Source: an uncultured Bacilli bacterium (GTDB taxonomy: Bacteria; Bacillota_I; Bacilli_A; RFN20; CAG-449). From it: a stretch of DNA of 64,000 nt. Below the pieces are notes generated by a model. It had not been told where the DNA came from and did not search any database. It saw nothing but the letters and a program-made list of their open reading frames with translations. The position numbers and the translations under genes were made by a program. How positions within the stretch are numbered: position 1 is the stretch's first letter; each line of letters starts with the position of its first letter. The stretch spans positions 5,326-69,325 of the forward strand of contig CANRPC010000003.1 of NCBI GenBank assembly GCA_947632435.1, written 5' to 3'. Below are positions 8,864 to 59,707 of the stretch, in pieces.

Positions 8864-9337
8864 TGTTTTTACCTCTATTTGAATTATTAGACAAATTGCA
8901 TAATTAATATAACAATTCTTTTCTTTAATATTTTATAAAATATTTTTTATTTTATTTCAAGAGTATTATACTTTTTTTAAAAAAATTAATTATAATTTTC
9001 AAAAATAAAAAAGTAATAAATAAATTAAGCTTTAAAAAGCAATCACGTATTTGAGATTTAACACATTAAAGTTTAGGATTAAAAATTATTATATAAAATA
9101 AAAATAAAAGTATTGATAAATTTAACAAATGATTACTAAAAGATAATTTTAATAATTCTTAAGATATAATTTTATTTGTCAATAAGTAGAATTAACTCTA
9201 TATATATATTGATTTTACAAAATATTTATAATTAGTAATTTATATAATGTTTTATATTTAAAGTTTCTTGACTAAATACATTAAAACATACACTATTTAA
9301 CATTCTTTACATATATATAATTTTGAAAAGAGGTTTT

Positions 9338-9634
9338 ATGAAAATTAAGAATTTATTAATCCTTCCTCTTATGCTTTTAGGTTTACCTTTAGTTTCTTGT
9401 AATAAACAAGAAAATAATAAAATAACCATCGCAGAGGTAACTCATTCCATATTTTATGCACCTATGTATGTAGCAAAAAACAAAGGATTCTTCAAAGAAG
9501 AAGGACTTGATGTAGATATCATTACTACGCCTGGCGCGGATAAAACAATGGCATCTTTGCTTTCTAAAGACTCGCAAATTGGTTTAATGGGGAAGAGCCC
9601 TGAATTGGAGCGTCAACTCCAATATCATTCATAA
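9338..9634 (+). pseudogene. 5-prime fragment of NMT1/SsuA-type ABC substrate-binding lipoprotein gene, interrupted at ~9590
   Basis: AAGAGG RBS followed by ATG 9338. The product starts MKIKNLLILPLMLLGLPLVSC (lipobox) and continues ITIAEVTHSIFYAPMYVAKNKGFFKEEGLDVDI, which is typical of NMT1/THI5-like SBPs. After ...SQIGLMG the frame runs into foreign sequence and stops at 9632-9634. Confidence 0.8.
9565..9616. other. attL (host arm 9565-9589, GG core 9590-9591, element arm 9592-9616)
   Basis: This is the junction deduced from restoring the SBP reading frame. The element arm gaagagccctgaattggagcgtcaa is the imperfect inverted copy of the element arm at attR. Confidence 0.6.
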
Positions 9635-9705: not shown

Positions 9706-10620
9706 TTATGATTTATAATACTGTTCAAAATTCTCTGTTGTTCTTTCATTATATTGTTTTAACAATAACTTGAATTCATTATCAAGAACATCTAAAACAT
9801 TAATTTTTTCTATATCAATATTTGTGTTAGTTTCTTTACAAAGCATTACGTAAGACGTTCGCAAAACATAATATAACATTTGTGATAATTCAAAATAATG
9901 AAGCAAAGGATATCTACATATACTTATGTTACCATGCGAATATGAATGACACATTTTATGAAGTTTTTCTAGTCGTTCTAATAAAATGTTTTTTTCCTCA
10001 TCACTATCTTTTTTTAGATATTTAATTAATCCATCAAAAGAGTATGGATGAGTAGCAACAATCTGATGATAGTTTTCAATCTTATCAACCCATCCAAAAT
10101 GCAAATAATTAATCATGCTTTTTTCATTTTTGTTTATTCTATTTGTGTATTTATCACGAAATTCTTCAGTATAGCCCTCACCGCAATTTTCTTTACGAAC
10201 ATCGTAGTCGATAAAATCACCAAATTCTTTAATAACATTAGGTGTTTTATTAATTATCAAAAAATTAATGAAATATTCAATAGCACTTCTAGCACAAGAA
10301 TATGCAGAATCATGAAACCCATCTTCTATCAATGATAAAGTAGCTAAAGATTTATTGAATATTTGATTATAAAAACTACGGCTAAATGAAGAAAAGTTAG
10401 AATTTTGTAATATTGAATTTGCCTTAATAGTAATCACAAATAAATAATATAAAATAGGAAAATATATAAAATTATCACCAGATGTCACTTGTTGCTTTCT
10501 AAAAAACACATCACCATAAAACCGTAGTCTTATAGCATTCATAACTTCATCAACAAGCCTATTTACATATGCATCGTTATTTTGAAAACAGTTTCTTTCA
10601 TCAGGTTTAATAAAAATCAT
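9706..10620 (-). CDS. hypothetical alpha-helical protein with possible HEPN-like R-x4-H motif
   Basis: The ORF in the track starts at TTG 10641. ATG 10620 lies 8 nt after the upstream stop. It contains CRYPLLH (R-x4-H) and SYSHGN. No confident family assignment. Confidence 0.45.
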   Translation of the reverse strand: MIFIKPDERNCFQNNDAYVNRLVDEVMNAIRLRFYGDVFFRKQQVTSGDNFIYFPILYYLFVITIKANSILQNSNFSSFSRSFYNQIFNKSLATLSLIEDGFHDSAYSCARSAIEYFINFLIINKTPNVIKEFGDFIDYDVRKENCGEGYTEEFRDKYTNRINKNEKSMINYLHFGWVDKIENYHQIVATHPYSFDGLIKYLKKDSDEEKNILLERLEKLHKMCHSYSHGNISICRYPLLHYFELSQMLYYVLRTSYVMLCKETNTNIDIEKINVLDVLDNEFKLLLKQYNERTTENFEQYYKS

Positions 10621-10627
10621 TCTAGCT

Positions 10628-10879
10628 TTATGAATTCCCAATTTGACCAGTTATCATAGATTCAATAGATGGATTAATCTTAAACAATTCAAATAACTCA
10701 AAACAATACTTTTTTCTAACTATTTCAAGAACTCTTATTAAGAATGATTGCTTAATTTGTCCACTAAAAAGTCTTTTTAATGTTCGATTATTTTCTCTTT
10801 TCATCTCTTCTATAGAACGAATAGATTCTCTTAAATCAAATGGTTGATTCAAAATCAATTTTCCATAATCCTTATTCAC
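10628..10879 (-). CDS. small hypothetical protein (83 aa)
   Basis: Its GTG start shares one nucleotide with the TAG stop of the RNase III gene (10879). AGAGGA lies ~9 nt upstream. No motif recognised. Confidence 0.4.
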   Translation of the reverse strand: MNKDYGKLILNQPFDLRESIRSIEEMKRENNRTLKRLFSGQIKQSFLIRVLEIVRKKYCFELFELFKINPSIESMITGQIGNS

Positions 10880-11916
10880 TATTCATTATCCTCTTCTTCA
10901 TATTCATCTTTTAATCCACAAATATTGCAGATGCATAAATAAGCAGAATATTTCTTAGCTACCTTTTTAGATGTTGCATAGGCAGTCTCTTCAAATGAAT
11001 GACTTCTTATATAACAACTACACACCCATTTTGGATCACCATTATCATCGTATACTTGATTCTCTGATATACTATACTCCGGCATTGAAATATATCCTTT
11101 TTGGGCTAATTCTTGAAGAGTATTAATTGCATTTTCTAGTGTTAATTCTTCTGGTAATTCATCCATTATAGTAAATAATTCATCATTTTCAGCTAAATCG
11201 TCATAAGCAGATTCTGCCACTAAAGCTCTAGCTTCTGATTTACTATCACCATCTTCATAATAATGCATCCTACCTCTTGGTGTTTCTAAATACAAATGTG
11301 CTCTAAACCCACCATCATCAAGTTCTTCAAACTCATACTCTGGAATTTCACAATTTTCTTTTTGATTCCATTGTTGAATTAAAGCAACATAATCACCTTC
11401 ATCAGTTATCCCATTATTTAGATAGTGATCCATATTCAACATAAAATTTACCACGTTTTCTAATTCATCTGAATCCCATCCACTATCAATTGCAATAGCA
11501 CCTAGTATTGCTTCAAATAGATCTTCTTTAACTGAATCTTCTTCTTGTTGGTTTGATTGAATATCACCATTTCCCATGTATAAATATTCATTAAATCCCA
11601 TCTTATCAATCCTATGTGCAAGCATCTTTTTATTAACAAGTTTCTTTTTAATTTCAGTCAGGCTGCCTTCGGTTTTATATTTACGAGTTAAAAACTCACC
11701 ATCATCATTCTGATAGCCAAACCGATCCATTAAAATTTTAGTGACATAAAAGTCTAGTACCCTATCCCCAACAAATTCAAGTACTTCATTGTTTGCTCCA
11801 CCATTTTCTTGTGAATAAGAGCGTCTTGTGAATGCTTGAAACAAAAGTTCAGGTTCATTAAACCAGTAACTAATTTGTCTTTGAACATCCTCAAGATAAT
11901 CATTTAAATCTTTCAT
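10879..11916 (-). CDS. RNase III-domain protein with two C-terminal dsRBD-like units
   Basis: Has the RNase III signature NEVLEFVGDRVLD and a second catalytic block EDLFEAILGAIAIDSG. Two dsRBD-like stretches each end in a SK..A....A pattern: DSKSEARALVAESAYDDL and TSKKVAKKYSAYL. GGAGGA RBS precedes ATG 11916. Confidence 0.75.
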   Translation of the reverse strand: MKDLNDYLEDVQRQISYWFNEPELLFQAFTRRSYSQENGGANNEVLEFVGDRVLDFYVTKILMDRFGYQNDDGEFLTRKYKTEGSLTEIKKKLVNKKMLAHRIDKMGFNEYLYMGNGDIQSNQQEEDSVKEDLFEAILGAIAIDSGWDSDELENVVNFMLNMDHYLNNGITDEGDYVALIQQWNQKENCEIPEYEFEELDDGGFRAHLYLETPRGRMHYYEDGDSKSEARALVAESAYDDLAENDELFTIMDELPEELTLENAINTLQELAQKGYISMPEYSISENQVYDDNGDPKWVCSCYIRSHSFEETAYATSKKVAKKYSAYLCICNICGLKDEYEEEDNE

Positions 11917-12183
11917 AAAATCCTCCGTTCAATTGTCAGGAAGATAAACAAAAAAAGTCCATAAAATAGGTACACTATTCCCACTAGAACGGATTGTACC
12001 TTCATCATAAGCTTTTAACTTTGCAAAATGTTTATATAAACCACTATTTATTTAATCAACACTCATTTGCATAAGAATCATTAAATAAATCTTGTTTTAT
12101 ATCCCGATTTTGAGACCATCAAAGCCATTTATCTTTTGACAAAAATATTTTACTCCAAGTATTATAAAAAATCTACTATTTAG

Positions 12184-12212
12184 AAGAAAAAACGTCGATG
12201 CGTCGACGTTAT
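12184..12212 (-). terminator. rho-independent terminator downstream of the ATPase/RloB operon
   Basis: GC-rich 8-bp stem aacgtcga/tcgacgtt (12191-12198 / 12203-12210) with a 4-nt loop. It is followed on the minus strand by a T-run. Confidence 0.6.
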
Positions 12213-12322: not shown

Positions 12323-13360
12323 TTATTTATCGTAAATTTTATCTATATCTTCTAAAGAAACCAAAATACTTCTCTTTTGACCTGGAAATCGTTTACTTAA
12401 TATACCTTTGTTCTCAAAGATTCTAAAAAGATGTTTTGCGTATATTTCTGAAATACTCGCCATTTCCATGAATGGTTTTATATTTACAATGCTTTTACTA
12501 ACTATTAAGCATGCATATTCTTTCTCCTGCTCATATTTTTTATTTTCAATGGATTCAAGATAGTCTTTCAATAATTTAAAATTATCAATTTCCTTTGCAA
12601 ATCCTTTTATATAGCAGATAATCGTGTACATAATTGTCGCAAAATAATTAATTATAACGTGATAGTTTTCTTCACAAGTTCCAGTGCATAAGTTTTTGCT
12701 CTTATAAATTTTTAACATATATAAAGGATGTAAAGTTATGTCATTAACTTCCCATGTAGAATTTTCTTTTTTAAAAGTTTTTATGTTTCTAATTAAATTT
12801 TCTAACATTAATTTATTAAAATTGCATTGGATATACTCCATTGTATTTTGTGAAAATTTGCTGTCATAGTATTGATTTAATTCGTTTTTATATCCAATAA
12901 AGGAATTAGATTCATATTTTCTATTAAAATCATATTCTGCGATGGATTCAATGCATGGTACACTCAATACCAATAATCCATCACTCATGTTAGAAAACTT
13001 TTTATAAGCCGCTTCTATTTCATCAATACTATTGTGATCTGAATCATAAACAATAAAAATACCAGCAAAATATACATTAGGTTCAAAAAACAGTCTATTA
13101 ATTGATTCAGAACTGATTTCAATATCATCTTTATTTTTTGAAAAAATTAAATCTTTAAGTCTATTTTTAGGGCCTTGAATGACAAATACATTTTCTTTTT
13201 CATTGGAAAACTGTATTTTCTTAAAATCACCATTAAAAGATAAAGGTGTTGGATATACGACAACATCTAAATCATATTGACGTAATACAAATTCAAAGAT
13301 ACTTGGTTCGGTTTTTGATCCTTCAACAATAATCAAATAATTACGTTTTCCTGAGATCAT
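12323..13360 (-). CDS. RloB-like / Toprim-type protein with C-terminal wHTH-like tail (AbiLii / AriB-like partner)
   Basis: The N-terminus YLIIVEGSKTEPSIFEF matches the RloB-family (I.CEG..TE..YF) Toprim-like start. It begins 3 nt after the ATPase gene stop. The C-terminus ISEIYAKHLFRIFENKGILSKRFPGQKRSILVSL looks like a winged helix. Confidence 0.55.
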   Translation of the reverse strand: MISGKRNYLIIVEGSKTEPSIFEFVLRQYDLDVVVYPTPLSFNGDFKKIQFSNEKENVFVIQGPKNRLKDLIFSKNKDDIEISSESINRLFFEPNVYFAGIFIVYDSDHNSIDEIEAAYKKFSNMSDGLLVLSVPCIESIAEYDFNRKYESNSFIGYKNELNQYYDSKFSQNTMEYIQCNFNKLMLENLIRNIKTFKKENSTWEVNDITLHPLYMLKIYKSKNLCTGTCEENYHVIINYFATIMYTIICYIKGFAKEIDNFKLLKDYLESIENKKYEQEKEYACLIVSKSIVNIKPFMEMASISEIYAKHLFRIFENKGILSKRFPGQKRSILVSLEDIDKIYDK

Positions 13361-13363
13361 AAT

Positions 13364-14527
13364 CTAATCCTCTATATCAAACAATTTTCCAAAATACATT
13401 TTTTCAATATTATTAATTTCTCTAATATTAGGATAAATTTGTGATAGTCTATAGTAAGTTGAATATCCTCTATTCCATTTAGCAAAATAAATTTGATCTG
13501 GTCTTAAATGTTGAAGAATATGCGTATTATGAGAAGAAAATACTAATTGAATACTTTTCTTCTTAACAACATTTAAGAAAGAGACTATTGCTGTTGGATG
13601 CAATGCCAATTCTAATTCATCAATAAATAACACACCATTTTCTGGTAGTGATAGTAAAATTGATAGCAACAAGCTTTGATTTCTCATACCATCAGAAATC
13701 ATAGTTAAAGGTAATTCAGCATTTTCAAGTCCTTCATATTTTATAAAGAAAGGATTTTGGCTATTTAAACCAGGTCGTGCTTCTTTTTTTATAATTGAAT
13801 ATATTGGAAATTCATCATAGTCTTTCAATATATCTTTCACTTCTTCTGATTTTGATACCATCAAATCAGCAACAGACATATTATTAAATATTTTTGATGA
13901 AACATATGCTCCTGCAGCTTGACGTGGCAAATCCACAAAGGTAAAAGAAGTTATAAACTTATAAGCGTTTTGAATTCTATCATCATTTATTTCTATAGAA
14001 GCAAGATATCTTAATGTCGGAACCAATAAAGAACGATTTTCTATTTCAATTTTTGTAACTACATTTTTAAATTTTTCGCTATTTATTTCTCTTTCAAATA
14101 TATACTCATCATTAACTTTTAAGTATTCATTTTCTATCCTATTTAATGGGCTTGTAGAAATGAAGTATTTATATTGCTCGTCTCCTATAGAAAAATCAAT
14201 TAAAATACTTCCATTAATCGGTTTCACATTTTTATATTCTTTTTGGTCTTGTTCTGCTTTTTTTAGTTTGTCTATATATTCTTTAAGATCAAATTGATTA
14301 ACTACAAATGGGACTAAGTTATCAACTGGACTAATCATTAAAAATATTAATTGTTGGATTCCTTTAAAAAAGGATGATTTACCACTTCCATTATGTCCAT
14401 ATATTGCGATAGGATTTACTCTTCCATTTAAAATATTATCTTCTAAAAATTTGTAATTTTTTTTAGAAAAATCAATTTCGCAAGTTCCTATGGAATTGAT
14501 ATTTTTTAAAACTATCTTATTAATCAT
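13364..14527 (-). CDS. AAA_21-type ABC-like ATPase (AbiLi / AriA / RloA-like)
   Basis: Walker A is IYGHNGSGKSSF, Walker B is VLFIDELELALHP, and FSSHN follows. It sits immediately upstream of the RloB-like gene. Confidence 0.7.
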   Translation of the reverse strand: MINKIVLKNINSIGTCEIDFSKKNYKFLEDNILNGRVNPIAIYGHNGSGKSSFFKGIQQLIFLMISPVDNLVPFVVNQFDLKEYIDKLKKAEQDQKEYKNVKPINGSILIDFSIGDEQYKYFISTSPLNRIENEYLKVNDEYIFEREINSEKFKNVVTKIEIENRSLLVPTLRYLASIEINDDRIQNAYKFITSFTFVDLPRQAAGAYVSSKIFNNMSVADLMVSKSEEVKDILKDYDEFPIYSIIKKEARPGLNSQNPFFIKYEGLENAELPLTMISDGMRNQSLLLSILLSLPENGVLFIDELELALHPTAIVSFLNVVKKKSIQLVFSSHNTHILQHLRPDQIYFAKWNRGYSTYYRLSQIYPNIREINNIEKMYFGKLFDIED

Positions 14528-14658: not shown

Positions 14659-16167
14659 CTAATCCATTACTTTGCTTATTTTATAGATGAAATTAAATTT
14701 ATATTTATTACCATCAAATATAATATCTACTCTTTCAATAAGTTTCCTGACCAAATCTAAATCATTGCATTCACTAGACAAAGATTTTATTTTATTTATA
14801 AATTTGCGAATTTCATTTTTAGATATTTTCGATTCCTCTATTTTATGATTAACAATCATCAGTTTTTCTTCTAACTCCTGTTGCTCTTTTTGTAGTTTCT
14901 CGCGTGATTTATTAAATTCATAAAGAGTTATATTCTCTAGAGCATAATTTTCAAACAATTTTTTTAGACTTAAATTTAATTGAGATAATCTTCTTTCAAT
15001 ATTTTCTTTTGTTTCTAGTTGAAGTTTCATATCATCCGTTTTAATAAACGATTGAATCGAATTTTCGTCCAATTTAATGGAGTTAATTAATTTGCTTATT
15101 TCTTGAAATATGACTTTATGAACGAAATCCGCTCGAATGGATTTTCTTGGCTTAGTATTTGTCACATAAAGATGATGTCCCCATTTCATATATGGAGCGG
15201 TTTTCCAATATCTCAATCTTTCACCATTTAAAAAAATCATTCCTTTTAGTCTCTCTTGATCTAATGTCAAAGAAACTTTTTTTTGCTTCTGTTTTAATAT
15301 CTTATTTGCCAATTCAAAAGTTTCTTTATCAACAATAGCAGGGTGAGCATTTTCTATCCTTTTTACTTCAACATTTCTTCGATGTGATTTATTGAGATTA
15401 ATCGCTACTCCTACATACTCTTCATTTTTGATGATTCTTAAGATTGTTGTTTTATCCCACTTATAGGGATTTTTTTTATATTTATCCTTTAATCGATATC
15501 CTTTTTTTATTTTGTAAACTGTGGGAATCCATATTTTTTCTTCTTCTAAAGTTTTTGCAATTTTAGTTATACCATAACCTTGGATATACAAAGCAAAGAT
15601 TTTTTTCACAATTATAGATGATTCATCATCAATAACAAGTTGATGGCTTTCATCAAATTTATATCCATATAATGGCTCTGTACCTATATCTTTTTTTGTA
15701 GCTAGAAATTCATAAGTTCGATTTGCTTTTTTCTTGCAATCTTTTAAATATCGGTCATTCATAAAACAACGTAAAAGATAAGAATCGTCTTCATTTGTCG
15801 CTGAATCATAATGATCAGAAATGGCAATAAAACGAATCTTCTTTTTAGGGAATATTTCTTCTAAATACTCACCAACTTCAATTAGATTTCTTCCAAATCT
15901 AGACAAATCTTTTACTATAATACAGTTAAACTTCTTGCGATTTAAGTCATCGATAAGTTCTTGAAATTTAGGACGGAAAAAGTCTTTTCCTGAAAAGCCA
16001 TCATCTATATAAGTTTTATAAATGTAAAATCCTTCTTCTAAAGCGTAATCGCTTAAAAGATGGATTTGATTTTGAATCGACCTGGAATAATCTTTCTTTT
16101 CTTCATCTTCTTCAGATAGTCTTATGTATAGAGCTGCAATCTTGTTGTTTATTAGTGTTTTGTTCAT
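14659..16167 (-). CDS. large serine recombinase (no Cys-type zinc ribbon visible)
   Basis: The N-terminus AALYIRLSEEDE....SIQNQ...L..Y and DDGFSGKDF.RP.F form the resolvase catalytic domain, followed by a recombinase domain and a coiled-coil tail. AAGGGG RBS precedes ATG 16167. It overlaps the upstream recombinase gene by 56 nt. Confidence 0.85.
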   Translation of the reverse strand: MNKTLINNKIAALYIRLSEEDEEKKDYSRSIQNQIHLLSDYALEEGFYIYKTYIDDGFSGKDFFRPKFQELIDDLNRKKFNCIIVKDLSRFGRNLIEVGEYLEEIFPKKKIRFIAISDHYDSATNEDDSYLLRCFMNDRYLKDCKKKANRTYEFLATKKDIGTEPLYGYKFDESHQLVIDDESSIIVKKIFALYIQGYGITKIAKTLEEEKIWIPTVYKIKKGYRLKDKYKKNPYKWDKTTILRIIKNEEYVGVAINLNKSHRRNVEVKRIENAHPAIVDKETFELANKILKQKQKKVSLTLDQERLKGMIFLNGERLRYWKTAPYMKWGHHLYVTNTKPRKSIRADFVHKVIFQEISKLINSIKLDENSIQSFIKTDDMKLQLETKENIERRLSQLNLSLKKLFENYALENITLYEFNKSREKLQKEQQELEEKLMIVNHKIEESKISKNEIRKFINKIKSLSSECNDLDLVRKLIERVDIIFDGNKYKFNFIYKISKVMD

Positions 16168-17803
16168 AAATAAAACCCCTTATTACTTCATCCGCGTATT
16201 TGTATTCAATCGTTATTTGAATTCCTTTATCTGCATGGTAACGCTTATTTGTCTTCTTTTGACCTATATAAATCTTATTTATCAATGATAAGATAAGTTC
16301 TTCTTTCATATCTTCAATCGAATCTAGTTTGCTATTTATAAACAAAGATAGAAGTCTTTTTGTATTAGATACAAAATCAATATTTTCTATTTTTGTTTTT
16401 AAGTTTAAAAGCTCATCTAAACGTTTTTGAATTTCTATTTGTTTGTCTCTATATTCTTTGGAGCGACTATTATATTCAGACAAAGTAATATGGTCCATTC
16501 CATAGAGTTCAAAAAGTTTCTTTAAAAAAACATCGTATTTTGCAAATTCTTTATTTAATAACTCTATTTCTTCCATGTGTGAATTAGGGATGTTTTTTTT
16601 AATATTTTCAATATTAGAAGCAAATTGAAGAATAGAATCTTGATGTAGAAGAAAATATTCTTTAAATTGTTTTAATTCTTCAAATAATACTTGATGTAAA
16701 AATTCATTTGTTACTCTTGGTTTTATAACACATTCTGTGTTTTTACAATAAATTGTCCCTTTTTCCGTGGGTCTTTTTATAGATTGATTCTTTTTAAAAA
16801 CTAATTTCTTTTTGCAACTCGCACAATAACAGAGCCCTCTTAAAGGATCAAGTGATTTAAGTTCATGAGCATATTTATATTTATTTCTTAATTCTTGAAC
16901 TTGCTGATAGGTATTTTTATCTATAATAGGTTCAAAAGCGTCTTCAAAATAGTAACGATCATCTGTTTTATTTTTTATTTTATTATGTATTTTAAAGGAT
17001 ATTTTAGTGGTTTTAGCTGTAACTAAACATCCTGTATAGTCAATTGTAGATATAATCGTTTCAACAGTATGCATTTTCCAGTTATATTTTTTATCTTCAT
17101 CTAATAGGTCAATCTTACTTCCCATTTTTCCATAAGTGAAGTAATTGTAATATGCTGGTGTTAAGACCTTTTCTTTTCTTAAATTCTGACATATTTCTTT
17201 GAGAGATTTCCTATCAATTAAAAATTCATGATAAATTCTTTTTACAATAAGCGCAGTTTCTGGATTAATCATTCTTTGTCCTTCTTGATTGAAGGAATAT
17301 CCATATAATGGATAGGCACTTCTTTTTTGAATCCCCTTTTTTTGTTGATAGTTTTTCGTTGCACGAACTTTTTTTGAAATATCTTTAGCATAGAATTCGT
17401 TTATGACATTCTTTAAAGGGACAAAATCATCACTATCACCATTTATAGAATCATAGTTATCATTTATCGCAATATATCTTATATTTTTTTTCGGAAAGTA
17501 TTCTTCAATATAGTATCCAGAAGTGATATAGTTTCTTCCCAATCGAGATAAATCTTTCGTGATTACTAAATCAATTCTCTCTTCTTCAATATCTTGAATC
17601 ATTCGTTTAAATCCTGGCCTATTAAATGATGTTCCTGTGTATCCGTCATCAATATAATAGTCAAAGATTATCCAACCTTTTTTTGTGACGTATTCGGTGA
17701 TAAAAGCCTTTTGATTCGTGATAGAATTTGATTCTTTGAATTCTTCATCTTCACGAGATAATCTACAATATATTGCTACATTATAGTTTAATTTGGCTTT
17801 CAT
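16112..17803 (-). CDS. large serine recombinase (with CxCxxC...CxxxxC zinc ribbon)
   Basis: Has VAIYCRLSREDE....SITNQ and DDGYTGTSFNRPGF, the zinc ribbon LCYCASCKKK...YCKNTEC, and a long coiled-coil C-terminus. Confidence 0.85.
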   Translation of the reverse strand: MKAKLNYNVAIYCRLSREDEEFKESNSITNQKAFITEYVTKKGWIIFDYYIDDGYTGTSFNRPGFKRMIQDIEEERIDLVITKDLSRLGRNYITSGYYIEEYFPKKNIRYIAINDNYDSINGDSDDFVPLKNVINEFYAKDISKKVRATKNYQQKKGIQKRSAYPLYGYSFNQEGQRMINPETALIVKRIYHEFLIDRKSLKEICQNLRKEKVLTPAYYNYFTYGKMGSKIDLLDEDKKYNWKMHTVETIISTIDYTGCLVTAKTTKISFKIHNKIKNKTDDRYYFEDAFEPIIDKNTYQQVQELRNKYKYAHELKSLDPLRGLCYCASCKKKLVFKKNQSIKRPTEKGTIYCKNTECVIKPRVTNEFLHQVLFEELKQFKEYFLLHQDSILQFASNIENIKKNIPNSHMEEIELLNKEFAKYDVFLKKLFELYGMDHITLSEYNSRSKEYRDKQIEIQKRLDELLNLKTKIENIDFVSNTKRLLSLFINSKLDSIEDMKEELILSLINKIYIGQKKTNKRYHADKGIQITIEYKYADEVIRGFIYEQNTNKQQDCSSIHKTI

Positions 17804-18059: not shown

Positions 18060-18308
18060 TTATTTAATATTTAATTTTTCTAATTGGCTTCGACGAACAG
18101 TTATTGTAACAAGTTCATCTTTTTTCTTGTCTTTCCAAGTCCCTACTTTTCTAATAATTAATTGGTTATTTTCTAAAAATATGGAAACTAAATCACCAAC
18201 TTCAAAGCCTAATTTCTTAAACCATTGTTCTTGAATGATTAAAGAGGGATTATTTTCAGAACCTCTTTGATGGCATATTGTAAGTTGTCTTTCTGATTTA
18301 TTATTCAT
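18060..18308 (-). CDS. SymE-like (AbrB/SpoVT-fold) type I toxin family protein
   Basis: IIQEQWFKKLGFEVGDLVSIFLENNQLIIRKV fits the SymE pattern (L.G.WL...GF..GD.V.V....G.L.I). The protein is 82 aa. Confidence 0.55.
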   Translation of the reverse strand: MNNKSERQLTICHQRGSENNPSLIIQEQWFKKLGFEVGDLVSIFLENNQLIIRKVGTWKDKKKDELVTITVRRSQLEKLNIK

Positions 18309-18466: not shown

Positions 18467-18841
18467 ATGAATCGTTTAAAAGAATTAGCGGATGAGTTTA
18501 AATTGAGTTCCTATGATTTTCAAAAAGAGATGAATATTTCTAGGAACATTGTTTTTAATATATATAATAATCGAACAACTTTTGATGTTGAAAAGTTGAA
18601 TACTTTTTGTGAGTATTTTCAAGTAACAGCAGATTATTTCCTTTGTAAATCAAACGAAGGAATCTATGTAAATGTATTGGGTCATAGATATATTTTATCC
18701 AAGGAAAAATTTCTCTTATATCGTGAGATGGGCAAAATTACTTATATTGATAAAAAAAGAACTTTAGCTGTCAAATCACTTGATGAGATTAGGTTTGTCA
18801 ATCACAAAGTTCCTTGCATTGAATTAATTGAAGAATTTTAA
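18467..18841 (+). CDS. XRE-family helix-turn-helix regulator
   Basis: The N-terminus LKELADEFKLSSYDFQKEMNISRNIVFNIYNN is a Cro/C1-type HTH. Confidence 0.7.
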   Translation: MNRLKELADEFKLSSYDFQKEMNISRNIVFNIYNNRTTFDVEKLNTFCEYFQVTADYFLCKSNEGIYVNVLGHRYILSKEKFLLYREMGKITYIDKKRTLAVKSLDEIRFVNHKVPCIELIEEF

Positions 18842-24143: not shown

Positions 24144-25972
24144 TTATTTATGCAGTTCGGTTATTTCATTTAAAAATGATGAATGGGATAAGTATTTCAT
24201 TTTTCCATTCATAAAATGTCTTTCGGCAGATGTCAGAAATAATCTTTCTTTTGCTCTTGTTATGCCAACATAAAAGATTCTTCTTTCCTCTTCTTTTTGA
24301 CTAAGAAATTGTGAGGTTCTTGGAAGTATTCCTTCGTTAAGATCAACAAGAATTACCACTTTAAATTCAAGGCCTTTCGCTTGATGAATTGTCATAAGTT
24401 TTACCACATTCAAGCTTTCTTCTTTTTCATCTAAAAGATAAAAATTGTTGAGCCATTCCATCGTAGATTTTTCGATGTCTTGAAGTTGATAGGGAATATT
24501 AGCAATGTACTCTTTAAATTCCAGTAGATGATTTATTTTCTCATTAGCTTTTTTATCTTTGCTAACTTCATGAAAATAGTTCAATTTTTCTAAGATGAAG
24601 TCATAGAAATCAACTGGAATCTTCTCTTTTATTTGCGTTTGTAATTCTTCCATGAGCTGAAGAAAATCTTTTGCTTCTTCTTTATCTTGGAGCAAAGAAT
24701 AATAAGATTTCTGCGTACGGGCTTGTTCATTTTGAAGATTTTTCATAAACTTTTCTGAAAAGAGTTTTTTAGGGTAATTACTCATCATCAAAAAAGCAAT
24801 ATCATCATGAGGATTATGAATAAACTGATAGATATTTAGAATATTTTTTATTTCTCTATAACGGAAAAATGGATAAGAGCCATAAACTTTAAACGGAATA
24901 TGGTTTAATATAAGTTCCTTTTCAAAGGCGTGAGATGACGCATTGTTACGATAAAGAATTGCAATGTCTTCATATTGATAATGATGTTCCAGGCAAAGTT
25001 TAATTAAAGTAGCAGCAAAACGTGCCTCATCTTCAACGGTCTTATAAGGTCGATATTGTATGTGAAAGGCATTGAGAGAATTTGATGTAAACATCTTCTT
25101 ATCAATGCGATTGACGTTATTTTTGATTACTTCATTTGCACATTTTAAAAAATTGCTTCCGTCGAACGATAATTTTCTTCTAAAATGATAGTTTTCGCTT
25201 TAAAATGACGAACAAAGTAATTCATGTTTTCAAAATTCGATCCACGAAATGTATAGATACATTGGTCCTGATCACCGACCATGAAAACTTGTTTGGCGTA
25301 CTTTGAAAGTAGCAATAATATTTCAAATTGAATATTATTGACATCTTGGGCCTCGTCGACGAGGATATATTCAATGTCTTCTGCAACAATCTCTTGAAAA
25401 TCTTTCTTTTGCAAGAGGTCTAGCATGTAGTACTGTAAATCATCAAAATCCATACGGTTACACTTCTTTAATCTCTCTTGATACTTTTTAAAGACCAGTA
25501 AGATTTGTAATTGTTCTTTCAATGAATCAACAATGTAAGGTGTATGGTTTTTAATATCAGAAATACGTTTTTTTATATTTTTATCAAGAATTTGGATTTT
25601 TAATTCTTTAATTATGTCTTTTAAAATCCCTAATCTTTCATCTTCATCGATAATCGCAACCGGATCATCGAATCCAATGTGATTTGCAAAGGTATTGATA
25701 ATACTATAATAATACGAATGAAACGTGGAAATTGTCGAATCAATGAACGAACCGCGAATTTTTGCGATTCTTGTCGTCATCTCTTTAGCAGCTTTATTTG
25801 TAAAAGTAAAAGCATAAATGTTTTTCGCATTTACTTTTTGTTCTAAAAGATGACATAAATGTAAGGTTAAAACTCTGGTTTTCCCTGTTCCTGCGGACGC
25901 GACCACTAGAGTATGTTTTTTAGAAAGAACTGCTTCTTTCTGTCGTTCATTTAAAGAAGTAAGATCAAGCAT
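24144..25972 (-). pseudogene. UvrD/PcrA/Rep-type superfamily-1 helicase, frameshifted in a homopolymer
   Basis: The N-terminal ORF has VVASAGTGKTRVL, VDEAQDVN and ENYRSTEAIF. The C-terminal ORF has TIHQAKGLEFKVVIL and FYVGITRAKERLFL. The downstream frame is open back to ...FLKCANEVIKNNVNRIDKK, the expected continuation. The frames differ by 1 nt at the A6/T4 run 25143-25152. Confidence 0.8.
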
Positions 25973-26227: not shown

Positions 26228-27361
26228 TTAAAAAGGGAGTTCCTCTCTAGCTAAGAATTCTTCTACTTCTTGAAAAATGAGATTTAATTCATTTTTCTTT
26301 AAATGCGGTTGTCCGGTTTCTTTCAGCAGTTTATTTAATTTCAGTAAGCGTTTCGGATCCATTTTAGAAAAGTAATCTTGAATATCGTTTAAAAGATTTA
26401 ATAAAAATTTTTTCATGTCATGAGCGTTATAGATGTAACGGAAAAGGAAATAAAAAGTGAGAATCGGTGTAACCCAGTTTAAGTATCTTTCGAGTGTCGT
26501 TTCATGCACTTTGTATTTAATAATTTGTGATTTTTTTACTTCATGAAGGAACTTTTTCCACCATGAAATTGTTTCTACTTTATATTGGTCTACTTCGGAA
26601 TAAGCATTATCTTCTTTAAAATCAATCATTTCATATAAAAGGCCATAGACATAATTTTGAAAATCGTCTTTATGATCTAATAAAGTAAAACAGACATTAT
26701 ATGCTTTTTCTTTGGTGAATCTCATTTCATAACGTAGCCAATAATCTTGTTCACATTCGTTATTTTTACTTAATTGTTCTTTTTTCTTATCGTAAATAAC
26801 AAGCATTTGTGTAGAAAGGTGACTGCCAAATTGAATCGACCAGCCCTCTTCATCACTGCCGATGAGTTTATAACTTTTCTTTTTAAATGAGGTAGTGTAT
26901 TTTCTGGAATCAAGAGCTTCTTTAATCATGTTTTGGGTTACAATGCTTCCGTCATAATCATCAATCGCAATATCAATTCTAGTGATGTTGGCATTGAGAC
27001 GAATCATTAAGAAAAACAATAAATCATAGAATGTTTTCTCTCCCTGATTTTCAAATTCTCGACATCCTTGACCTCTTAATTCTAAGTGACAAGAAGGCAT
27101 ACCTGTTTTTAATTCCGGGCCGAGTAATCTTAGCTTAATAGAATCGCCAATTTGATATTGGTAGCGGTATCTAGCAGTTGCATACTCATCTTCCGTTACT
27201 TCTTCTAAAGAAAAGCCCATAAATTGAGAAATAAGTAAAACCGTTTCTTCCACAACTTTCTTTTCTAAATCATCATCAAAGTTTTTAAATGGGAAAGTCG
27301 CGGACAAATAATCAATGATGATGTGAATTCCTTCTTTTTTCGTACTTTCTTCTATATTCAT
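26228..27361 (-). CDS. Rep_trans-family rolling-circle replication initiator / relaxase
   Basis: The N-terminus IHIIIDYLSATFPF (the IDYLS.T motif), CHLELRGQGCREFE and ITRIDIAIDD are blocks typical of Rep_trans (the pT181 Rep / Tn916 Orf20 family). Confidence 0.6.
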   Translation of the reverse strand: MNIEESTKKEGIHIIIDYLSATFPFKNFDDDLEKKVVEETVLLISQFMGFSLEEVTEDEYATARYRYQYQIGDSIKLRLLGPELKTGMPSCHLELRGQGCREFENQGEKTFYDLLFFLMIRLNANITRIDIAIDDYDGSIVTQNMIKEALDSRKYTTSFKKKSYKLIGSDEEGWSIQFGSHLSTQMLVIYDKKKEQLSKNNECEQDYWLRYEMRFTKEKAYNVCFTLLDHKDDFQNYVYGLLYEMIDFKEDNAYSEVDQYKVETISWWKKFLHEVKKSQIIKYKVHETTLERYLNWVTPILTFYFLFRYIYNAHDMKKFLLNLLNDIQDYFSKMDPKRLLKLNKLLKETGQPHLKKNELNLIFQEVEEFLAREELPF

Positions 27362-38144: not shown

Positions 38145-38196
38145 TTGACGCTCTATTTCCGGGTTCATGGGCCCTGAAGCAAGTGTCTATGTTTAT
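38145..38196. other. attR (element arm 38145-38169, GG core 38170-38171, host arm 38172-38196)
   Basis: The element arm ttgacgctctatttccgggttcatg is the inverted partner of the attL element arm. The host arm continues the SBP frame as (G)PEASVYVY. Confidence 0.6.
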
Positions 38197-38913
38197 ACTC
38201 AAGGTCAAAAAGATTATGCGGTTAACTTTGCTCAATTAACTCAAAAAGATGGCTCATTCTTACTAGGTAGAGAAAAAATTGAACATTTTGAATATGATAT
38301 GCTAAAAGGCAAAACAATCATTGGAGGTCGTAAAGGTGGTATGCCTTTAATGATTCTAGAACACATTTTAAGGAATAAAGGTATTGAATTTGGTGAAGAT
38401 GATCCTTCTAAAGAAGTAAATATTCGTACCGATGTTTCTTTTGATGCAATGTCTGGAGTATTTGTCGCAGGTCAAAGCGATTTTGTCACAGCTTTTGAAC
38501 CTGTAGCAACTCAAGTTGAAACTTTAAATAAAGGATATATTATTACGTCTCTTGGTCAAGATTCAGGAAATATCCCTTATACTTGTTTTTCTACTTTAAA
38601 ATCATATATGGAAAAAAATGAAGATAAACTTGTTAAATTTACAAACGCGATTACAAAAGGTTTAAATTACGTTTTAACAAGCGAAATCAAAGACATTGTT
38701 CCATATTTAAAAACCGATTTTGCTTCAAGTAGTGATGAAGAACTTACTAAAGTTTTAACTAACTATTTAAATATCGAAGCTTGGCCTTCAACTCCTTCAT
38801 TTAATAAGGAAAACTTCGATAAGTTAATTGAAATCGTAAAAGAAGCTGGAGAGTTAGATCAAGATGTATCTATCTCTTATGAAACTTTAGTTACAAACAA
38901 ATACATTAAGTAG
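38167..38913 (+). pseudogene. 3-prime fragment of the same NMT1/SsuA-type substrate-binding protein gene
   Basis: (M)GPEASVYVYTQGQKDYAVNFAQLTQKDGSFLLGRE... is colinear with the C-terminal two thirds of NMT1-like SBPs. It has no own signal peptide or RBS context. Together with the 5-prime fragment it gives ~331 aa. Confidence 0.8.
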
Positions 38914-48574: not shown

Positions 48575-48633
48575 AATTTTATAAACCAACTTAAAATGTC
48601 TTCAAAACTTGTATCTTTTCTTTAGACATAATT

Positions 48634-54206: not shown

Positions 54207-54476
54207 TTATAAATCCTTAATTTTCATGATATCAATTTCTTTATTTTTCTTCTTTTTCGTAATACTATTTTTAATTTCAAAAACTACGAGTAAAACAAAA
54301 TAAATTATAAATTGTACTAAAGCTAAATCATAAACTAATTCATCTTTAGAAACTAAGAATGCAATGCATGAAGCAATAACTAATAGTATGCCAAATTTTC
54401 TAAACTTTGTAAAAGCAATAAGAACTTGTACAATTAAAACAATAATATTAATTACATTACTTGGATCTGCTTCCAT
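54207..54476 (-). CDS. small three-TM membrane protein, copy 1
   Basis: The likely start is MEADPSNV at 54476 after GAAGGAA; the track ORF starts at 54509. It is identical to the copy at 59302. Confidence 0.5.
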   Translation of the reverse strand: MEADPSNVINIIVLIVQVLIAFTKFRKFGILLVIASCIAFLVSKDELVYDLALVQFIIYFVLLVVFEIKNSITKKKKNKEIDIMKIKDL

Positions 54477-54533
54477 TTTCTGTTTCCTTCTTTCTTTAAA
54501 AAATACCATAAAATATTTTTTTTAGACACAATT

Positions 54534-54562
54534 ATATTACAAAATTTTTTAATATTATTCAA
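54534..54562 (-). promoter_or_regulatory. sigma-70-type promoter (TTGAAT-17-TGtTAATAT), copy 2 of 3
   Basis: On the minus strand, TTGAAT is at 54557-54562 and TAATAT at 54534-54539, with an extended -10 TG. Confidence 0.5.
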
Positions 54563-54601
54563 CATTAATACAATTTATTAAAATTTTTTAAAATTCTACT
54601 T

Positions 54602-58652: not shown

Positions 58653-59300
58653 TTAAAAAACAACATATACTTTAAATATAGGTAAGTAAGCATTATAATC
58701 AGAATCTTGAAAATTAAAGGTATAAAATGGACCTTGAATTTCTTGAGTTATTTTTTTTAATTCATTCTCTTCATAAATAAAATCATCAGAAAATCTATCT
58801 GGATCAAGAATTTCTTCTTTAAAATAATCTTTAGAAAAATAAATATATAATCCTATATTATCAATTTTTTGAACTCCTAAATAACAAACATAAAAATATT
58901 CATCTAATGAAATTGCTAAATCGAATTCAGTTGATGGATATTCAAATATTAAAAAACTATATTCATTATCAAACCTATTTATTTGATACATTTTTGTTTT
59001 ACTTTCATTAACAAAGGTTAAATCTAAGTATAAAATGTCTCTATTTTCATTTAATAGGATATAACCAGTATCTCTAGAACAAAAATATAACCCTTCATTA
59101 TCTTTATTAAAAGCATTAATATCTTCAATTAATTCTTGATAATTATTTAGATTATAAGTTTTATTAGCATTAAAATTAGTTGTTTTAATATTAGGCTTAT
59201 TAATTATAACTACAACTGTTGATACTATAAAAAGAACTATTGCAACCACTAAAGATAGATAGTAAGTTATAGACCAAAAATAGTTTATTCTTTTTTTCAT
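58653..59300 (-). CDS. N-terminally anchored hypothetical protein (215 aa), copy 2
   Basis: Differs from copy 1 only at S/P, Q/E, H/Q, L/I and E/K near the C-terminus. Confidence 0.55.
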   Translation of the reverse strand: MKKRINYFWSITYYLSLVVAIVLFIVSTVVVIINKPNIKTTNFNANKTYNLNNYQELIEDINAFNKDNEGLYFCSRDTGYILLNENRDILYLDLTFVNESKTKMYQINRFDNEYSFLIFEYPSTEFDLAISLDEYFYVCYLGVQKIDNIGLYIYFSKDYFKEEILDPDRFSDDFIYEENELKKITQEIQGPFYTFNFQDSDYNAYLPIFKVYVVF

Positions 59301-59301
59301 A

Positions 59302-59571
59302 TTATAAATCCTTAATTTTCATGATATCAATTTCTTTATTTTTCTTCTTTTTCGTAATACTATTTTTAATTTCAAAAACTACGAGTAAAACAAAATAAAT
59401 TATAAATTGTACTAAAGCTAAATCATAAACTAATTCATCTTTAGAAACTAAGAATGCAATGCATGAAGCAATAACTAATAGTATGCCAAATTTTCTAAAC
59501 TTTGTAAAAGCAATAAGAACTTGTACAATTAAAACAATAATATTAATTACATTACTTGGATCTGCTTCCAT
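59302..59571 (-). CDS. small three-TM membrane protein, copy 2
   Basis: Identical in translation to 54207-54509. Confidence 0.5.
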   Translation of the reverse strand: MEADPSNVINIIVLIVQVLIAFTKFRKFGILLVIASCIAFLVSKDELVYDLALVQFIIYFVLLVVFEIKNSITKKKKNKEIDIMKIKDL

Positions 59572-59628
59572 TTTCTGTTTCCTTCTTTCTTTAAAAAATA
59601 CCATAAAATATTTTTTTTAGACACAATT

Positions 59629-59657: not shown

Positions 59658-59707
59658 CATTAATACAATTTATTAAAATTTTTTAAAATTCTACTTTTAT
59701 TTTTATT

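Follow-up and report, generated by a model that had tools for sequence, protein, structure and literature searches.

Genes at the locus

The window, by which we mean the whole 64-kb stretch of DNA analysed here, carries an element of ~28.5 kb that interrupts a gene for an NMT1-like lipoprotein. One end of the element lies between 9634 and 9706, a placement that follows from the position of the remainder of the NMT1-like gene at 38167-38913. Around the genes discussed below, the main landmarks are:

9323..9634, (+) strand: N-terminal fragment of the NMT1-like lipoprotein gene, interrupted by the element (the same fragment is present in the related locus L017)
12323..14527, (-) strand: AbiL-type two-gene defence system (Pfam, PADLOC)
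12323-13360, (-) strand: AbiLii of this system, RloB-like
13364-14527, (-) strand: AbiLi of this system, AAA_21
14659..17803, (-) strand: tandem large serine recombinases of 502 aa and 563 aa (Pfam)
18060..18308: SymE-like ORF within the same element
38167-38913: remainder of the NMT1-like gene (NMT1 match 38167-38910)

The AbiL system sits between the recombinases and an RNase III gene, which is followed by a gene of the DUF5677 family. The element also encodes Rep_trans, a split UvrD/PcrA and three serine recombinases. Its unknown ORFs (27.5-33.7 kb) had no matches in PHROGs or Pfam, and for this reason we class the element neither as a phage nor as an ICE. The original prediction for this DNA, made from its letters, had placed a chain of three genes at the end of an element that also encodes a SymE-type toxin; the location and the SymE-like ORF were both confirmed.

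An accessory RNase III with two dsRBDs

The RNase III gene and the domains of its product are placed as follows:

10879..11916, (-) strand: accessory RNase III gene, 345 aa (ORF read, Pfam, TIGR02191, AF2 model, Foldseek)
11853-11473, (-) strand: RNase III domain, aa 22-148 (Pfam)
11391-11188, (-) strand: dsRBD1, aa 176-243 (AF2 model)
11139-10918, (-) strand: dsRBD2, aa 260-333 (AF2 model; Pfam dsrm at aa 263-331)

In a Pfam scan of the protein, residues 22-148 matched RNase III and residues 263-331 matched dsrm, while the match to TIGR02191 spans residues 12-240, which is the full length of Rnc including the first dsRBD. The score of that match (150.6 bits) is under the equivalog cut-off of 166.25. 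Both catalytic blocks are kept, as had been claimed. The first, NEVLEFVGD (residues 43-51), contributes the acidic residues E44, E47 and D51, and an alignment of 21 homologues showed E47 to be invariant and E44 and D51 to be at least 90% conserved. In the second, EDLFEAILGA, D132 and E135 are invariant among the same 21 homologues; we take the counterpart of this D-x-x-E block in Aquifex RNase III to be D107/E110.

The C-terminal half had been read as two dsRBD-like units separated by an acidic linker. This description holds, with the AF2 model giving two alpha-beta3-alpha dsRBDs (176-243 and 260-333) on either side of an acidic linker, and with the tandem dsRBDs of R2D2, PKR and TARBP2 aligning to residues 175-336. 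The nuclease domain contains a beta-hairpin insertion at aa 67-77. Residues 6-247 align across the whole of Rnc (T. maritima 1o0w, E 2e-28), and the best Foldseek matches of the model were 7r97, 1o0w and 2ez6. Foldseek also aligned DCL3 and DCL4 to the model across 360-371 columns, and K. polysporus Dcr1 matched the 345-aa protein at E 1e-4, a similarity at domain level only. Judged by its motifs and its C-terminal dsRBD, the protein is a class 1 bacterial RNase III, which by homology would cleave dsRNA in a Mg-dependent manner.

No second RNase III gene was found within the 64-kb window. NCBIfam and PHROGs searches with the RNase III and DUF5677 proteins returned only generic RNase III and one PHROG, the sole PHROG homologous to the RNase III, annotated as of unknown function. 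No PADLOC model (PADLOC-DB v2) matches either protein, whereas the neighbouring AbiLi and AbiLii do match. Our literature searches turned up no account of an accessory RNase III from a defence system or a mobile element, and, in line with the original prediction, we found no described defence or TA system that uses an RNase III of this kind.

A conserved structured leader upstream of the RNase III gene

Between the AbiL operon and the RNase III gene we identified the following features:

12191..12210, (-) strand: terminator-like hairpin closing the AbiLi/AbiLii operon (8-bp stem with 4 GC pairs, then a T-run)
12147..12166, (-) strand: candidate -10 elements TATAAT (12166-12161) and TAAAAT (12152-12147), from the sequence and the upstream alignment
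11917..12145, (-) strand: conserved structured 5' leader RNA of ~230 nt (alignment, covariance model, covariation)
12142-12127 pairing with 11949-11933, (-) strand: P1 of the leader
12126-12017, (-) strand: P2, a long irregular hairpin of ~40 bp with a GCAA tetraloop at 12070-12067
12016-11953, (-) strand: P3, a terminator-like hairpin followed by a U-run
about 11927-11923, (-) strand: RBS GGAGG of the RNase III gene

The hairpin at 12191..12210 marks the upstream limit of the RNase III transcription unit, AbiLii ending at 12323. The -10 elements are candidates, having received no score in a promoter scan; an alignment of upstream regions places a TTGACA/TTGTCA-17-TATAAT promoter at the matching position in relatives.

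Upstream DNA is kept across RNase III loci whose flanks are otherwise unrelated. A covariance model of the leader matched directly 5' of the RNase III ORF in 72 of 98 sources and also 5' of the ORF in most of 43 further sources, and it had no match in the same loci outside that position. The pairing is well maintained: 90.6% of cells are paired, where shuffles had 68% and slid controls about 42%, and none of 500 shuffled alignments reached any of the five measures used. Double changes were seen in 49 of 52 pairs. All these covariation counts lean towards the structure, because the alignment was fitted to the model; an independent MAFFT/RNAalifold alignment of 8 sequences still gave 14 compensated pairs. 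The loop varies within the GNRA pattern (GCAA, GUAA, GCGA, GAAA), and 61-62 of 64 distinct leaders have the P3 hairpin with its U-run. Rfam searches with the leaders of the window and of one other locus (L020) found no family at E <= 0.01, the best match being at chance level (E 0.04) and far under its gathering score. The leader, with its strong covariation, is a candidate for a new structured RNA that stands outside Rfam.

A broken DUF5677 gene downstream of RNase III

The region downstream of the RNase III gene had been read as two further genes, one for a small protein and one for a possible HEPN RNase. Alignment with L017, where the gene is intact in an element 96-98% identical to that of the window, reduces the chain of three genes to two:

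10628..10879, (-) strand: N-terminal fragment (the 83-aa ORF) of a ~402-aa gene of the DUF5677 family, disrupted in the window (alignment with L017)
10638..10639, (-) strand: junction of a 35-nt deletion with TTG microhomology, which frameshifts the gene (DNA alignment with L017)
9706..10641, (-) strand: C-terminal fragment of that gene, 311 aa if started at TTG 10641 and 304 aa if started at ATG 10620

The 83-aa and 304-aa ORFs are the halves of one gene of the DUF5677 family, and the deletion takes out residues ~81-92 of its product, including the conserved I91 (protein alignment). The junctions originally described are nonetheless correct as read: the RNase III stop TAG (10881-10879) and the GTG of the next ORF share G10879, the 83-aa ORF stops at the TAA at 10630-10628, and the ATG of the 304-aa ORF lies at 10620. 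The same stop/start junction is present in L017 (7851). The 83-aa ORF was also considered as a separate small protein or antitoxin, and this was rejected, since it encodes the beginning of the 402-aa protein.

The C-terminal fragment holds the PF18928 region, scoring 27.5 bits compared with 28.4 bits for an intact protein (P0121) and a Pfam gathering threshold of 27.1. DUF5677 was recognized by Pfam in 64 of 73 family members (best E 3e-11), which align from about residue 20. Conserved positions in the C-terminal fragment, numbered on the intact protein, are R209/E213, H272/G274/D277 and C322/H327/G328. The family, here DUF5677-400, comprises 178 representative clusters; for genome searches a 7-sequence alignment worked, the 73-sequence alignment being without a conserved stretch.

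The HEPN proposal had drawn on the helical look of the third ORF and its R-x4-H (CRYPLLH). The protein is modelled as all-helical (pLDDT 94.6), but the CRYPLLH positions vary between R and K and between H, N and S in 7 close homologues and fall outside the conserved columns of the 73-sequence alignment. No HEPN family matched any of the 73 members in a Pfam scan at E <= 1, and a sequence profile search of the PDB with the DUF5677 protein gave no match. Foldseek returned nothing in PDB or BFVD at E <= 0.001 (best 0.12 and 0.21), although an all-helical model such as this may have a very remote local similarity to the HEPN fold beyond that threshold. With no profile match, an unconserved motif and no structural match at this threshold, we rejected the HEPN identity. 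A confident model without a structural relative makes DUF5677-400 a candidate new fold carried on islands.

The RADS preprint describes DUF5677 as enriched next to serine recombinases, and in its E. faecalis screen 5 of 9 candidates were active, the DUF5677 gene not being among them (PMC12632615).

Distribution, genomic company and downstream partners

Members of the RNase III family are about 340-360 aa long, and homologues of 40-85% identity come from Mollicutes, Bacilli and Clostridia, where they lie in unrelated contexts. Carriers include M. gallinacea, Ca. Merdisoma HCP28S3_D10, Agathobacter ruminis JK623 and Pumilibacter intestinalis CLA-AA-M10, and the records JAFLVM01 and CAZZMZ01. The distribution is patchy, with 65-85% identical copies in different classes, and some copies are pseudogenes. 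Viral contigs in IMG/VR carry homologues as well, in many cases as their last gene. A tblastn search of isolated phages and plasmids found only distant canonical rnc genes (<35% identity) plus one exception, a full-length match of 29% on a Ruminococcus albus megaplasmid.

Homologues are located in defence islands, at prophage ends and at the recombinase-proximal end of integrative elements. Tandem serine recombinases are the commonest upstream neighbour, lying directly 5' of RNase III in 17 of 81 non-redundant loci; this and the other locus proportions are approximate because loci were retrieved with family-specific peptide patterns and genes were called with a simple ORF caller. Other neighbours include RM/Dcm-Z1, GmrSD, DUF3427-PLD, BREX, ThsA and LmuB, as well as dGTPase, SoFic, PDC candidates, AbiH and HipA. 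SymE is not a conserved neighbour, and many copies lie in chromosomal islands with neither recombinase nor SymE nearby. The claim that the RNase III is accessory and element-borne stands, and its surroundings are rich in defence genes, with the AbiL system and two large serine recombinases directly upstream. Its family is, as far as sequence can tell, large, uncharacterised, accessory and mobile.

The trio had also been expected to co-occur elsewhere, and this is not what we found. A DUF5677-400 gene lies directly 3' of RNase III in 4 of ~81 non-redundant RNase III loci, and RNase III directly 5' of DUF5677-400 in 1 of 39 DUF5677-400 loci. An obligate operon of the two fails, as the genes do not co-occur in most carriers. 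The order RNase III then DUF5677 in the same orientation recurs in four sub-branches of the RNase III family (the window with L017, L027, L161 and a remnant in L057), the nearest relatives of which are without a DUF5677 partner. The genes overlap by 8 nt in L161, and the order seen in the window is repeated in L009 as well as L017. DUF5677 is an occasional yet non-random downstream partner of RNase III. In other loci a 468-aa protein with a HicA-like C-terminus lies 3' of RNase III (10 of 12 informative loci, and for example in CAKQMB010000002.1), and in L014 a PemK/MazF-like protein does. In those loci the accessory RNase III and its RNase-like partner make up real two-gene units.

Possible role of the cassette

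We favour a reading in which the recombinase-proximal end of the element holds two independent cargo genes, an autoregulated RNase III cassette and a DUF5677 gene, with no three-gene system; we regard this as about evenly balanced between right and wrong. The cassette would consist of a promoter, the ~230-nt structured leader and a class 1 RNase III with an acquired second dsRBD, the enzyme acting on long dsRNA, which by homology it would bind and cut as a homodimer. The ~40-bp GNRA-capped hairpin would be of the type cut by RNase III, making the leader a putative operator of the enzyme itself. Free RNase III in excess would then cleave or attenuate its own mRNA, and a rise in dsRNA, such as an invading phage or plasmid might cause when it is transcribed convergently or in antisense, would draw the enzyme off by titration, leading to more RNase III and more of any translationally coupled downstream gene. 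Autoregulation through RNase III's own mRNA and titration by substrates both have precedent (PMC5371410, PMC3386247). From the shape of the leader alone we infer that the gene is probably autoregulated by cleavage, although it might equally be a pure attenuator or a binding site for some other factor. Through guilt by association, the neighbouring genes hint at a part in conflicts of mobile elements with their hosts, which might be phage exclusion or dsRNA clearance. Anti-defence and element-regulatory genes share hotspots with defence genes. The ~402-aa DUF5677-family gene is normally a stand-alone island gene and, by profile and motif, not a HEPN gene. In the element lineage to which the window belongs it is joined behind RNase III by the stop/start overlap, and in the window itself the 35-nt deletion inactivates it.

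The original prediction was of an RNA-targeting operon in which RNase III, a small protein and a HEPN RNase make up one defence or TA system. The stop/start overlap behind RNase III is real, the gene order recurs in L009 and L017, and HEPN-RNase III-dsRBD fusions exist in cyanobacteria (PMC3710099), but the two downstream ORFs are a single gene broken by the 35-nt deletion, no HEPN profile, motif or fold was found, and the pairing is missing in roughly 95% of the RNase III loci and in 38 of the 39 DUF5677-400 loci. This operon is refuted as stated and scarcely credible; what survives of the candidate RNA-targeting module is a mobile RNase III with tandem dsRBDs. A looser version has a modest chance of being right, namely that RNase III and DUF5677-400 form a facultative two-gene system in which leader and RNase III act as dsRNA sensor or switch and DUF5677-400 as effector, the copy in the window having decayed. 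Same-strand adjacency in four sub-branches is far over chance for a family of 178 clusters, start/stop overlap is seen in two of the four cases, and another sublineage has its HicA-like partner in 10 of 12 loci. Each gene is nevertheless mostly alone, the two may be neighbours through an insertion hotspot that they share at the cassette's 3' end, and DUF5677 was inactive in the one published screen (PMC12632615). In a more far-reaching reading, which we put forward tentatively and think possible though unlikely, the long RNase III and its leader would be a dsRNA-sensing immune switch functionally analogous to Dicer. The enzyme would keep its own operon repressed by cutting the hairpin of the leader, and phage or plasmid dsRNA would titrate it, boost dsRNA cleavage and, where a toxic partner is coupled, free an abortive-infection effector; the window would hold such a two-gene unit with a decayed effector. 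Candidate effector partners for a switch of this kind are the 468-aa HicA-like, MazF-like and Thg1-like proteins and DUF5677-400.

Other readings give the enzyme a different client. It may serve the element itself, by processing or silencing a SymE-type toxin mRNA or antisense RNA or the recombinase mRNA, and so make the element independent of host RNase III. Control of recombinase mRNA by RNase III is familiar from lambda sib retroregulation. The location immediately 3' of paired serine recombinases (17 of 81 loci) and the SymE-like ORF in the element of the window fit this, as does the need of B. subtilis for RNase III to silence prophage toxins (cited in PMC5371410), but we consider it unlikely given the many copies in chromosomal islands without recombinase or SymE, a cassette that has its own promoter and leader and moves apart from the recombinases, and the insertion of AbiL between recombinases and RNase III in the window. 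Unlikely, too, is a counter-defence gene whose product would destroy the RNAs on which host immunity relies, among them guide/target duplexes, retron ncRNA and antitoxin RNAs. Carriage on prophage-like and integrative elements and on IMG/VR contigs would suit such a gene, as would the clustering of anti-defence genes in defence-gene hotspots, whereas RNase III is found inside chromosomal RM, BREX and Thoeris-type islands as well. The plainest alternative, that this is the housekeeping rnc of the organism lying near a mobile element, has in its favour the full catalytic set and the strong TIGR02191 alignment. It is almost certainly wrong, as the gene lies inside the element, flanked by both NMT1 halves, its product has an extra domain and scores under the equivalog cut-off, and its relatives are patchy, pseudogenised in places and 65-85% identical across classes, where RNase III is otherwise near-universal in bacteria (PMC5303251).

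Comparison with known systems

To our knowledge, RNase III is usually seen as a universal housekeeping enzyme, with a role in immunity only as a host factor (tracrRNA processing, prophage toxin silencing). The accessory RNase III shares with the class 1 Rnc of E. coli, Aquifex and Thermotoga the RNase III domain, a dsRBD and all five acidic catalytic residues. It differs in having ~100 extra C-terminal residues that form a second, more canonical dsRBD, in the beta-hairpin insertion at aa 67-77, and in its place in mobile elements and defence islands rather than in a housekeeping operon, with a conserved leader of its own.

That leader resembles E. coli rncO and the rnc feedback sites of S. aureus and Streptomyces as a structured element upstream in the gene's own mRNA with a long irregular hairpin. 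Unlike rncO, it has a three-way P1/P2/P3 arrangement with a GNRA cap and a terminator-like P3, lacks Rfam homology, and is a predicted cleavage target. What is new here is the presence of this conserved leader, with covariation, upstream of nearly every member of the RNase III family.

The cyanobacterial HEPN-RNase III-dsRBD two-headed RNases likewise combine RNase III and a dsRBD with a second, presumed conflict protein (Anantharaman et al. 2013, PMC3710099), whereas the partner in the window is a separate gene, has no HEPN signature by profile or motif, and is facultative and broken. The RADS arrangement, large serine recombinase(s) followed by same-strand defence genes, is also similar, although RNase III does not appear in the main text of that preprint (PMC12632615).

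The same domain order is seen in eukaryotes. Arabidopsis RTL2 has the layout RNase III-dsRBD-dsRBD (PMC5714217), the C-terminal part of plant DCL3 and DCL4 is RNase IIIb-dsRBD-dsRBD, and these and budding-yeast Dcr1 share with the accessory RNase III this order and a homodimeric active form, the latter here by homology. The accessory RNase III differs in being bacterial and mobile, and it is not known to yield siRNA-like products or to have an Argonaute partner. A widespread mobile RNase III of eukaryote-like layout with its own regulatory RNA hints that, when bacteria and mobile elements are in conflict, dsRNA may serve as a target or a signal. The structured RNA candidate, the compact RNase III cassette and the conserved pair of RNase III and HicA-like protein are directly testable objects.

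RNase III protein

The RNase III gene (10879..11916, - strand) is an ORF of 345 aa, with Pfam matches to RNase III (residues 22-148) and dsrm (residues 263-331). TIGR02191, the NCBI equivalog for bacterial RNase III, aligns end to end with residues 12-240, so residues 1-240 already make up a complete Rnc (nuclease domain and dsRBD), and the 345-aa protein scores 150.6 bits, below the curated cut-off of 166.25. The catalytic acids are all kept, with E44, E47 and D51 in NEVLEFVGD and D132 and E135 in EDLFEAILGA, and are invariant or nearly so across 21 RNase III homologues of 49-81% identity. An AlphaFold model (pLDDT 83.7) has two alpha-beta-beta-beta-alpha dsRBDs, at residues 176-243 and 260-333, with an acidic linker between them; in a family profile search, residues 175-336 matched the tandem dsRBDs of R2D2, PKR and TARBP2. 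In Foldseek searches the model aligned with bacterial RNase III over ~245 columns and with plant DCL3/DCL4 over 360-371 columns. The original prediction described this protein correctly, and sequence and modelled fold show an RNase III with its catalytic set complete and two dsRBDs.

In the second dsRBD (window 10918-11139, - strand), W297, C299 and C301 are near-invariant (RNase III residues ~297-330) and the C-terminal helix is cysteine-rich (CICNICG). This Cys/Trp cluster could be a redox or metal site; plant RTL1 is regulated by a conserved dsRBD cysteine (PMC5714217).

Downstream gene

The original prediction read two further genes after RNase III, an 83-aa ORF and a 304-aa ORF with a possible HEPN motif. 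Homologues of the 304-aa ORF found by protein search are all ~390-402 aa, and the best of them (P0121, 96% identical) has the 83-aa ORF sequence at its start and runs on into that of the 304-aa ORF. P0121 is a single 402-aa gene in L017, a database locus holding a copy of the element 96-98% identical to that of the window, and the start of the gene there overlaps the RNase III stop.

L017:7851-9059, intact DUF5677-400 gene (P0121), the intact form of window 9706-10879

DNA alignment showed that the window is without 35 nt found in L017, with the gap between window positions 10639 and 10638 and TTG microhomology on both sides. The deletion causes a frameshift and the loss of residues ~81-92 of the 402-aa protein; together with the intact gene in L017 it rules out the two ORFs as separate genes. 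An exhaustive search gave 178 representative clusters in the DUF5677-400 family. The alignment of its full-length members begins at ~residue 20 and reaches their end, which takes in the part encoded by the 83-aa ORF. The same split is found in L009, a database locus identical to the window in all five overlapping proteins tested (both recombinases, AbiLi, AbiLii and RNase III). The gene coupled downstream of RNase III is broken in the window, and the supposed three-gene chain is RNase III followed by one gene with a broken frame.

The HEPN identity of the third ORF was also rejected, since no HEPN family appeared even at E <= 1 in a profile search of 73 family members and the proposed R-x4-H positions vary between R/K and H/N/S among the closest homologues. 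The window fragment and 64 of the 73 members instead reach the threshold for PF18928 (DUF5677). The three-gene HEPN module, as originally proposed, is not real. Conserved positions lie elsewhere (H95, R209, E213, G274, D277, C322, H327 and G328), and the H, R, E, D, C and H residues among them may form a metal or catalytic site. The model made from the 73 sequences is very confident (pLDDT 94.6, pTM 0.92) and all-helical, with no structural match at E <= 0.001 in PDB or BFVD, and the family profile found nothing among PDB sequences. Across 39 genome loci, DUF5677-400 is mostly a solitary insertion between unrelated housekeeping genes (such as metK, gdh, rumA and plsY) and sometimes adjoins AbiH, a KAP NTPase or a WYL regulator. 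According to a preprint (PMC12632615), DUF5677 is enriched next to serine recombinases; five of its nine candidates proved active, and the DUF5677 member assayed in E. faecalis was not one of them.

Leader RNA

Approximately 250 nt before the RNase III ORF are conserved in DNA between loci with otherwise unrelated flanks, and in relatives a sigma-70-type promoter lies just ahead of the leader. RNAalifold on eight sequences gave a long hairpin inside a long-range helix with 14 compensated pairs, and a covariance model was built from the same eight. In 72 of 98 sources the model has a same-strand match (E < 0.01) that directly precedes the RNase III ORF, and most of 43 further sources have one in the same place; it matches nowhere else in the RNase III loci searched. 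In the window the leader is laid out as follows, and P3 is followed by an RBS and then ATG 11916.

12142-12127 paired with 11949-11933, - strand, P1
12126-12017, - strand, P2, ~40 bp with a GCAA cap
12016-11953, - strand, P3, terminator-like hairpin and then a U-run

Among 66 distinct sequences, 90.6% of cells are paired, compared with 68% when shuffled and ~42% with slid partners, and both sides have changed in 49 of 52 pairs. None of 500 shuffles reached any of the five covariation measures, though these counts are biased towards structure because the alignment was fitted to the model. The P2 cap remains GNRA in relatives (GCAA, GUAA, GCGA or GAAA), and 61-62 of 64 distinct leaders have a P3 hairpin with a U-rich tract after it. 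This conserved structured RNA of ~230 nt (11917-12145, - strand) covaries strongly, precedes the gene in nearly all family members and matches no Rfam family; it is a new observation.

Distribution and genomic surroundings

A protein search with the RNase III gave 1,585 matches, and nearly all of the top 120 share the domain set and have a length of 330-376 aa; where named, these proteins are called only "ribonuclease III domain-containing protein". Pattern-based scans of one-genome-per-species contigs confirmed relatives on at least 514 stretches, the best 80 of which are almost all from Clostridia, Bacilli and Mollicutes. IMG/VR viral contigs supplied a further 30 loci, and at least five of these contigs end within ~30 bp past the RNase III gene (three within 3 bp); no close relatives were found in isolated phage or plasmid records. 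Split, two-ORF copies in L005/L022 (6001-7065) and L050 (7947-9122) look like pseudogenisation, which fits a dispensable accessory gene.

Neighbours were counted after reducing the loci to 81 non-redundant ones (<90% identity). Tandem large serine recombinases, encoded on the same strand immediately before the gene, are the commonest (17/81 loci), and Resolvase, Recombinase and Zn_ribbon_recom occur together in 22 of 125 proteins at -1/-2. Other neighbours include DUF3427-PLD helicase, Dcm, GmrSD, Mrr, a Dcm-HATPase-Z1-DUF4420 set, PemK-like, Fic, HNH, Thg1-like, TnpV, DUF2971, STALD, BrxA/BrxB, ThsA, LmuB, dGTPase, SoFic, several PDC candidates, AbiH, HipA and Mob_Pre, a set typical of defence islands and mobile elements.

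In the window, an NMT1-like substrate-binding lipoprotein gene is interrupted by a ~28.5-kb insertion, both ends of which are defined by the two parts of that gene. The RNase III copy and the DUF5677 gene sit at one end of this insertion. G+C is higher in the interior of the element than outside.

Features of the element and of the gene it splits (window coordinates)
9323-9634, +, NMT1-like gene, N-terminal fragment
12210-12191, -, terminator-like hairpin separating the AbiL operon from the RNase III unit
12323-13360, -, AbiLii (RloB-like), upstream of RNase III
13364-14527, -, AbiLi (AAA_21 ATPase), upstream of AbiLii
14659-17803, -, two large serine recombinases, upstream of AbiL
18060-18308, -, SymE-like ORF, 82 aa, just past the recombinases
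18467-18841, HTH gene, divergent from the SymE-like ORF
24144-25094, -, UvrD/PcrA-type helicase, C-terminal domain, adjacent ORF
25145-25972, -, UvrD/PcrA-type helicase, N-terminal domain
26228-27361, Rep_trans initiator, adjoining the UvrD/PcrA ORFs
34602-37220, -, RHS-repeat protein, 872 aa, with small ORFs after it
38167-38913, +, NMT1-like gene, remainder

The AbiL-type defence pair (12323-14527, - strand) separates the serine recombinases from the RNase III cassette. Deeper in the element are HTH, MBL and sigma-70 genes, the Rep_trans initiator, the helicase in two ORFs, the RHS-repeat protein and a small resolvase, and no phage structural genes were recognised within it. The UvrD/PcrA pair (24144-25972, - strand) may be a second disrupted gene of the element, and the RHS-repeat protein may be polymorphic toxin cargo. 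The low-GC right flank resembles an array of paralogous genes, with repeated cassettes at 44640-48589, 54207-58599 and 58653-62424 (- strand) of paired ~645/671-687-aa ABC-ATPase/permease-like genes, along with ~215-aa and ~100-aa ORFs.

Almost all bacteria have an RNase III (PMC5303251). Since the form in the window is patchy, mobile, extended and below the equivalog threshold, it is best read as an accessory paralogue with a mobile distribution.

Downstream partners and proposed role

DUF5677-400 directly follows RNase III in the lineage of the window, L009 and L017, in a Coprobacillus sp. locus (L027) and in a Firmicutes CAG:449 locus (L161), and a 55-aa DUF5677 remnant follows it in L057. 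The four linked RNase III genes fall in separate sub-branches with partnerless closest relatives, so the juxtaposition arose or was retained repeatedly, and the recurrence is far above chance for so rare a family. Only ~5% of RNase III loci have the pair, as does 1 of 39 loci of DUF5677-400. The association is facultative and may be functional or may reflect a shared insertion hotspot.

A 468-470-aa protein with a coiled-coil middle and a HicA-like C-terminus (PADLOC 3e-5) directly follows RNase III, with stop and start overlapping, in five loci. A search from this protein gave 12 full-length genome loci that extend upstream of it; in 10 of them RNase III comes immediately before, and these ten cover 39-100% identity of the partner.

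Loci of the 468-470-aa partner
L044:9038-10441
L053:3058-4467
L073:9110-10519
L102:9047-10453
L164-L176

Within one sublineage of the long RNase III, this protein is a conserved downstream partner, and the pair is a candidate two-gene RNA-targeting system. Other +1 genes encode PemK/MazF-like, DUF2806/Abi_alpha and PDC-S31/DUF2971 proteins. Because HicA-like, PemK/MazF-like and Abi-type genes follow it, RNase III can head real two-gene units whose second gene is toxin- or Abi-effector-like by appearance.

E. coli RNase III cuts a 5'-UTR structure of its own mRNA and abundant substrates titrate the enzyme away, and in S. aureus and Streptomyces rnc feedback acts via sites within its own transcripts (PMC5371410, PMC3386247). 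The long hairpin of the leader is probably the RNase III's own operator. If this is true, the cassette is a dsRNA homeostat, in which more dsRNA would lead to more RNase III and more of any coupled downstream product. Going by the genes around it, the cassette most likely serves in conflicts with phages or other mobile elements. It is also possible that RNase III regulates the element itself, through SymE or recombinase transcripts, or that it serves as counter-defence.

Comparison with known systems

The original prediction knew of no defence system built on an accessory RNase III, and our literature search likewise found no description of one, of the long RNase III family or of the leader. 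The nearest published case of RNase III in conflict systems is the cyanobacterial HEPN-RNase III fusions (PMC3710099). The window's enzyme belongs to the RNase III family, yet it fails the housekeeping-equivalog test, and its domain order is that of Arabidopsis RTL2 (PMC5714217) and of the C-terminal part of plant DCLs.
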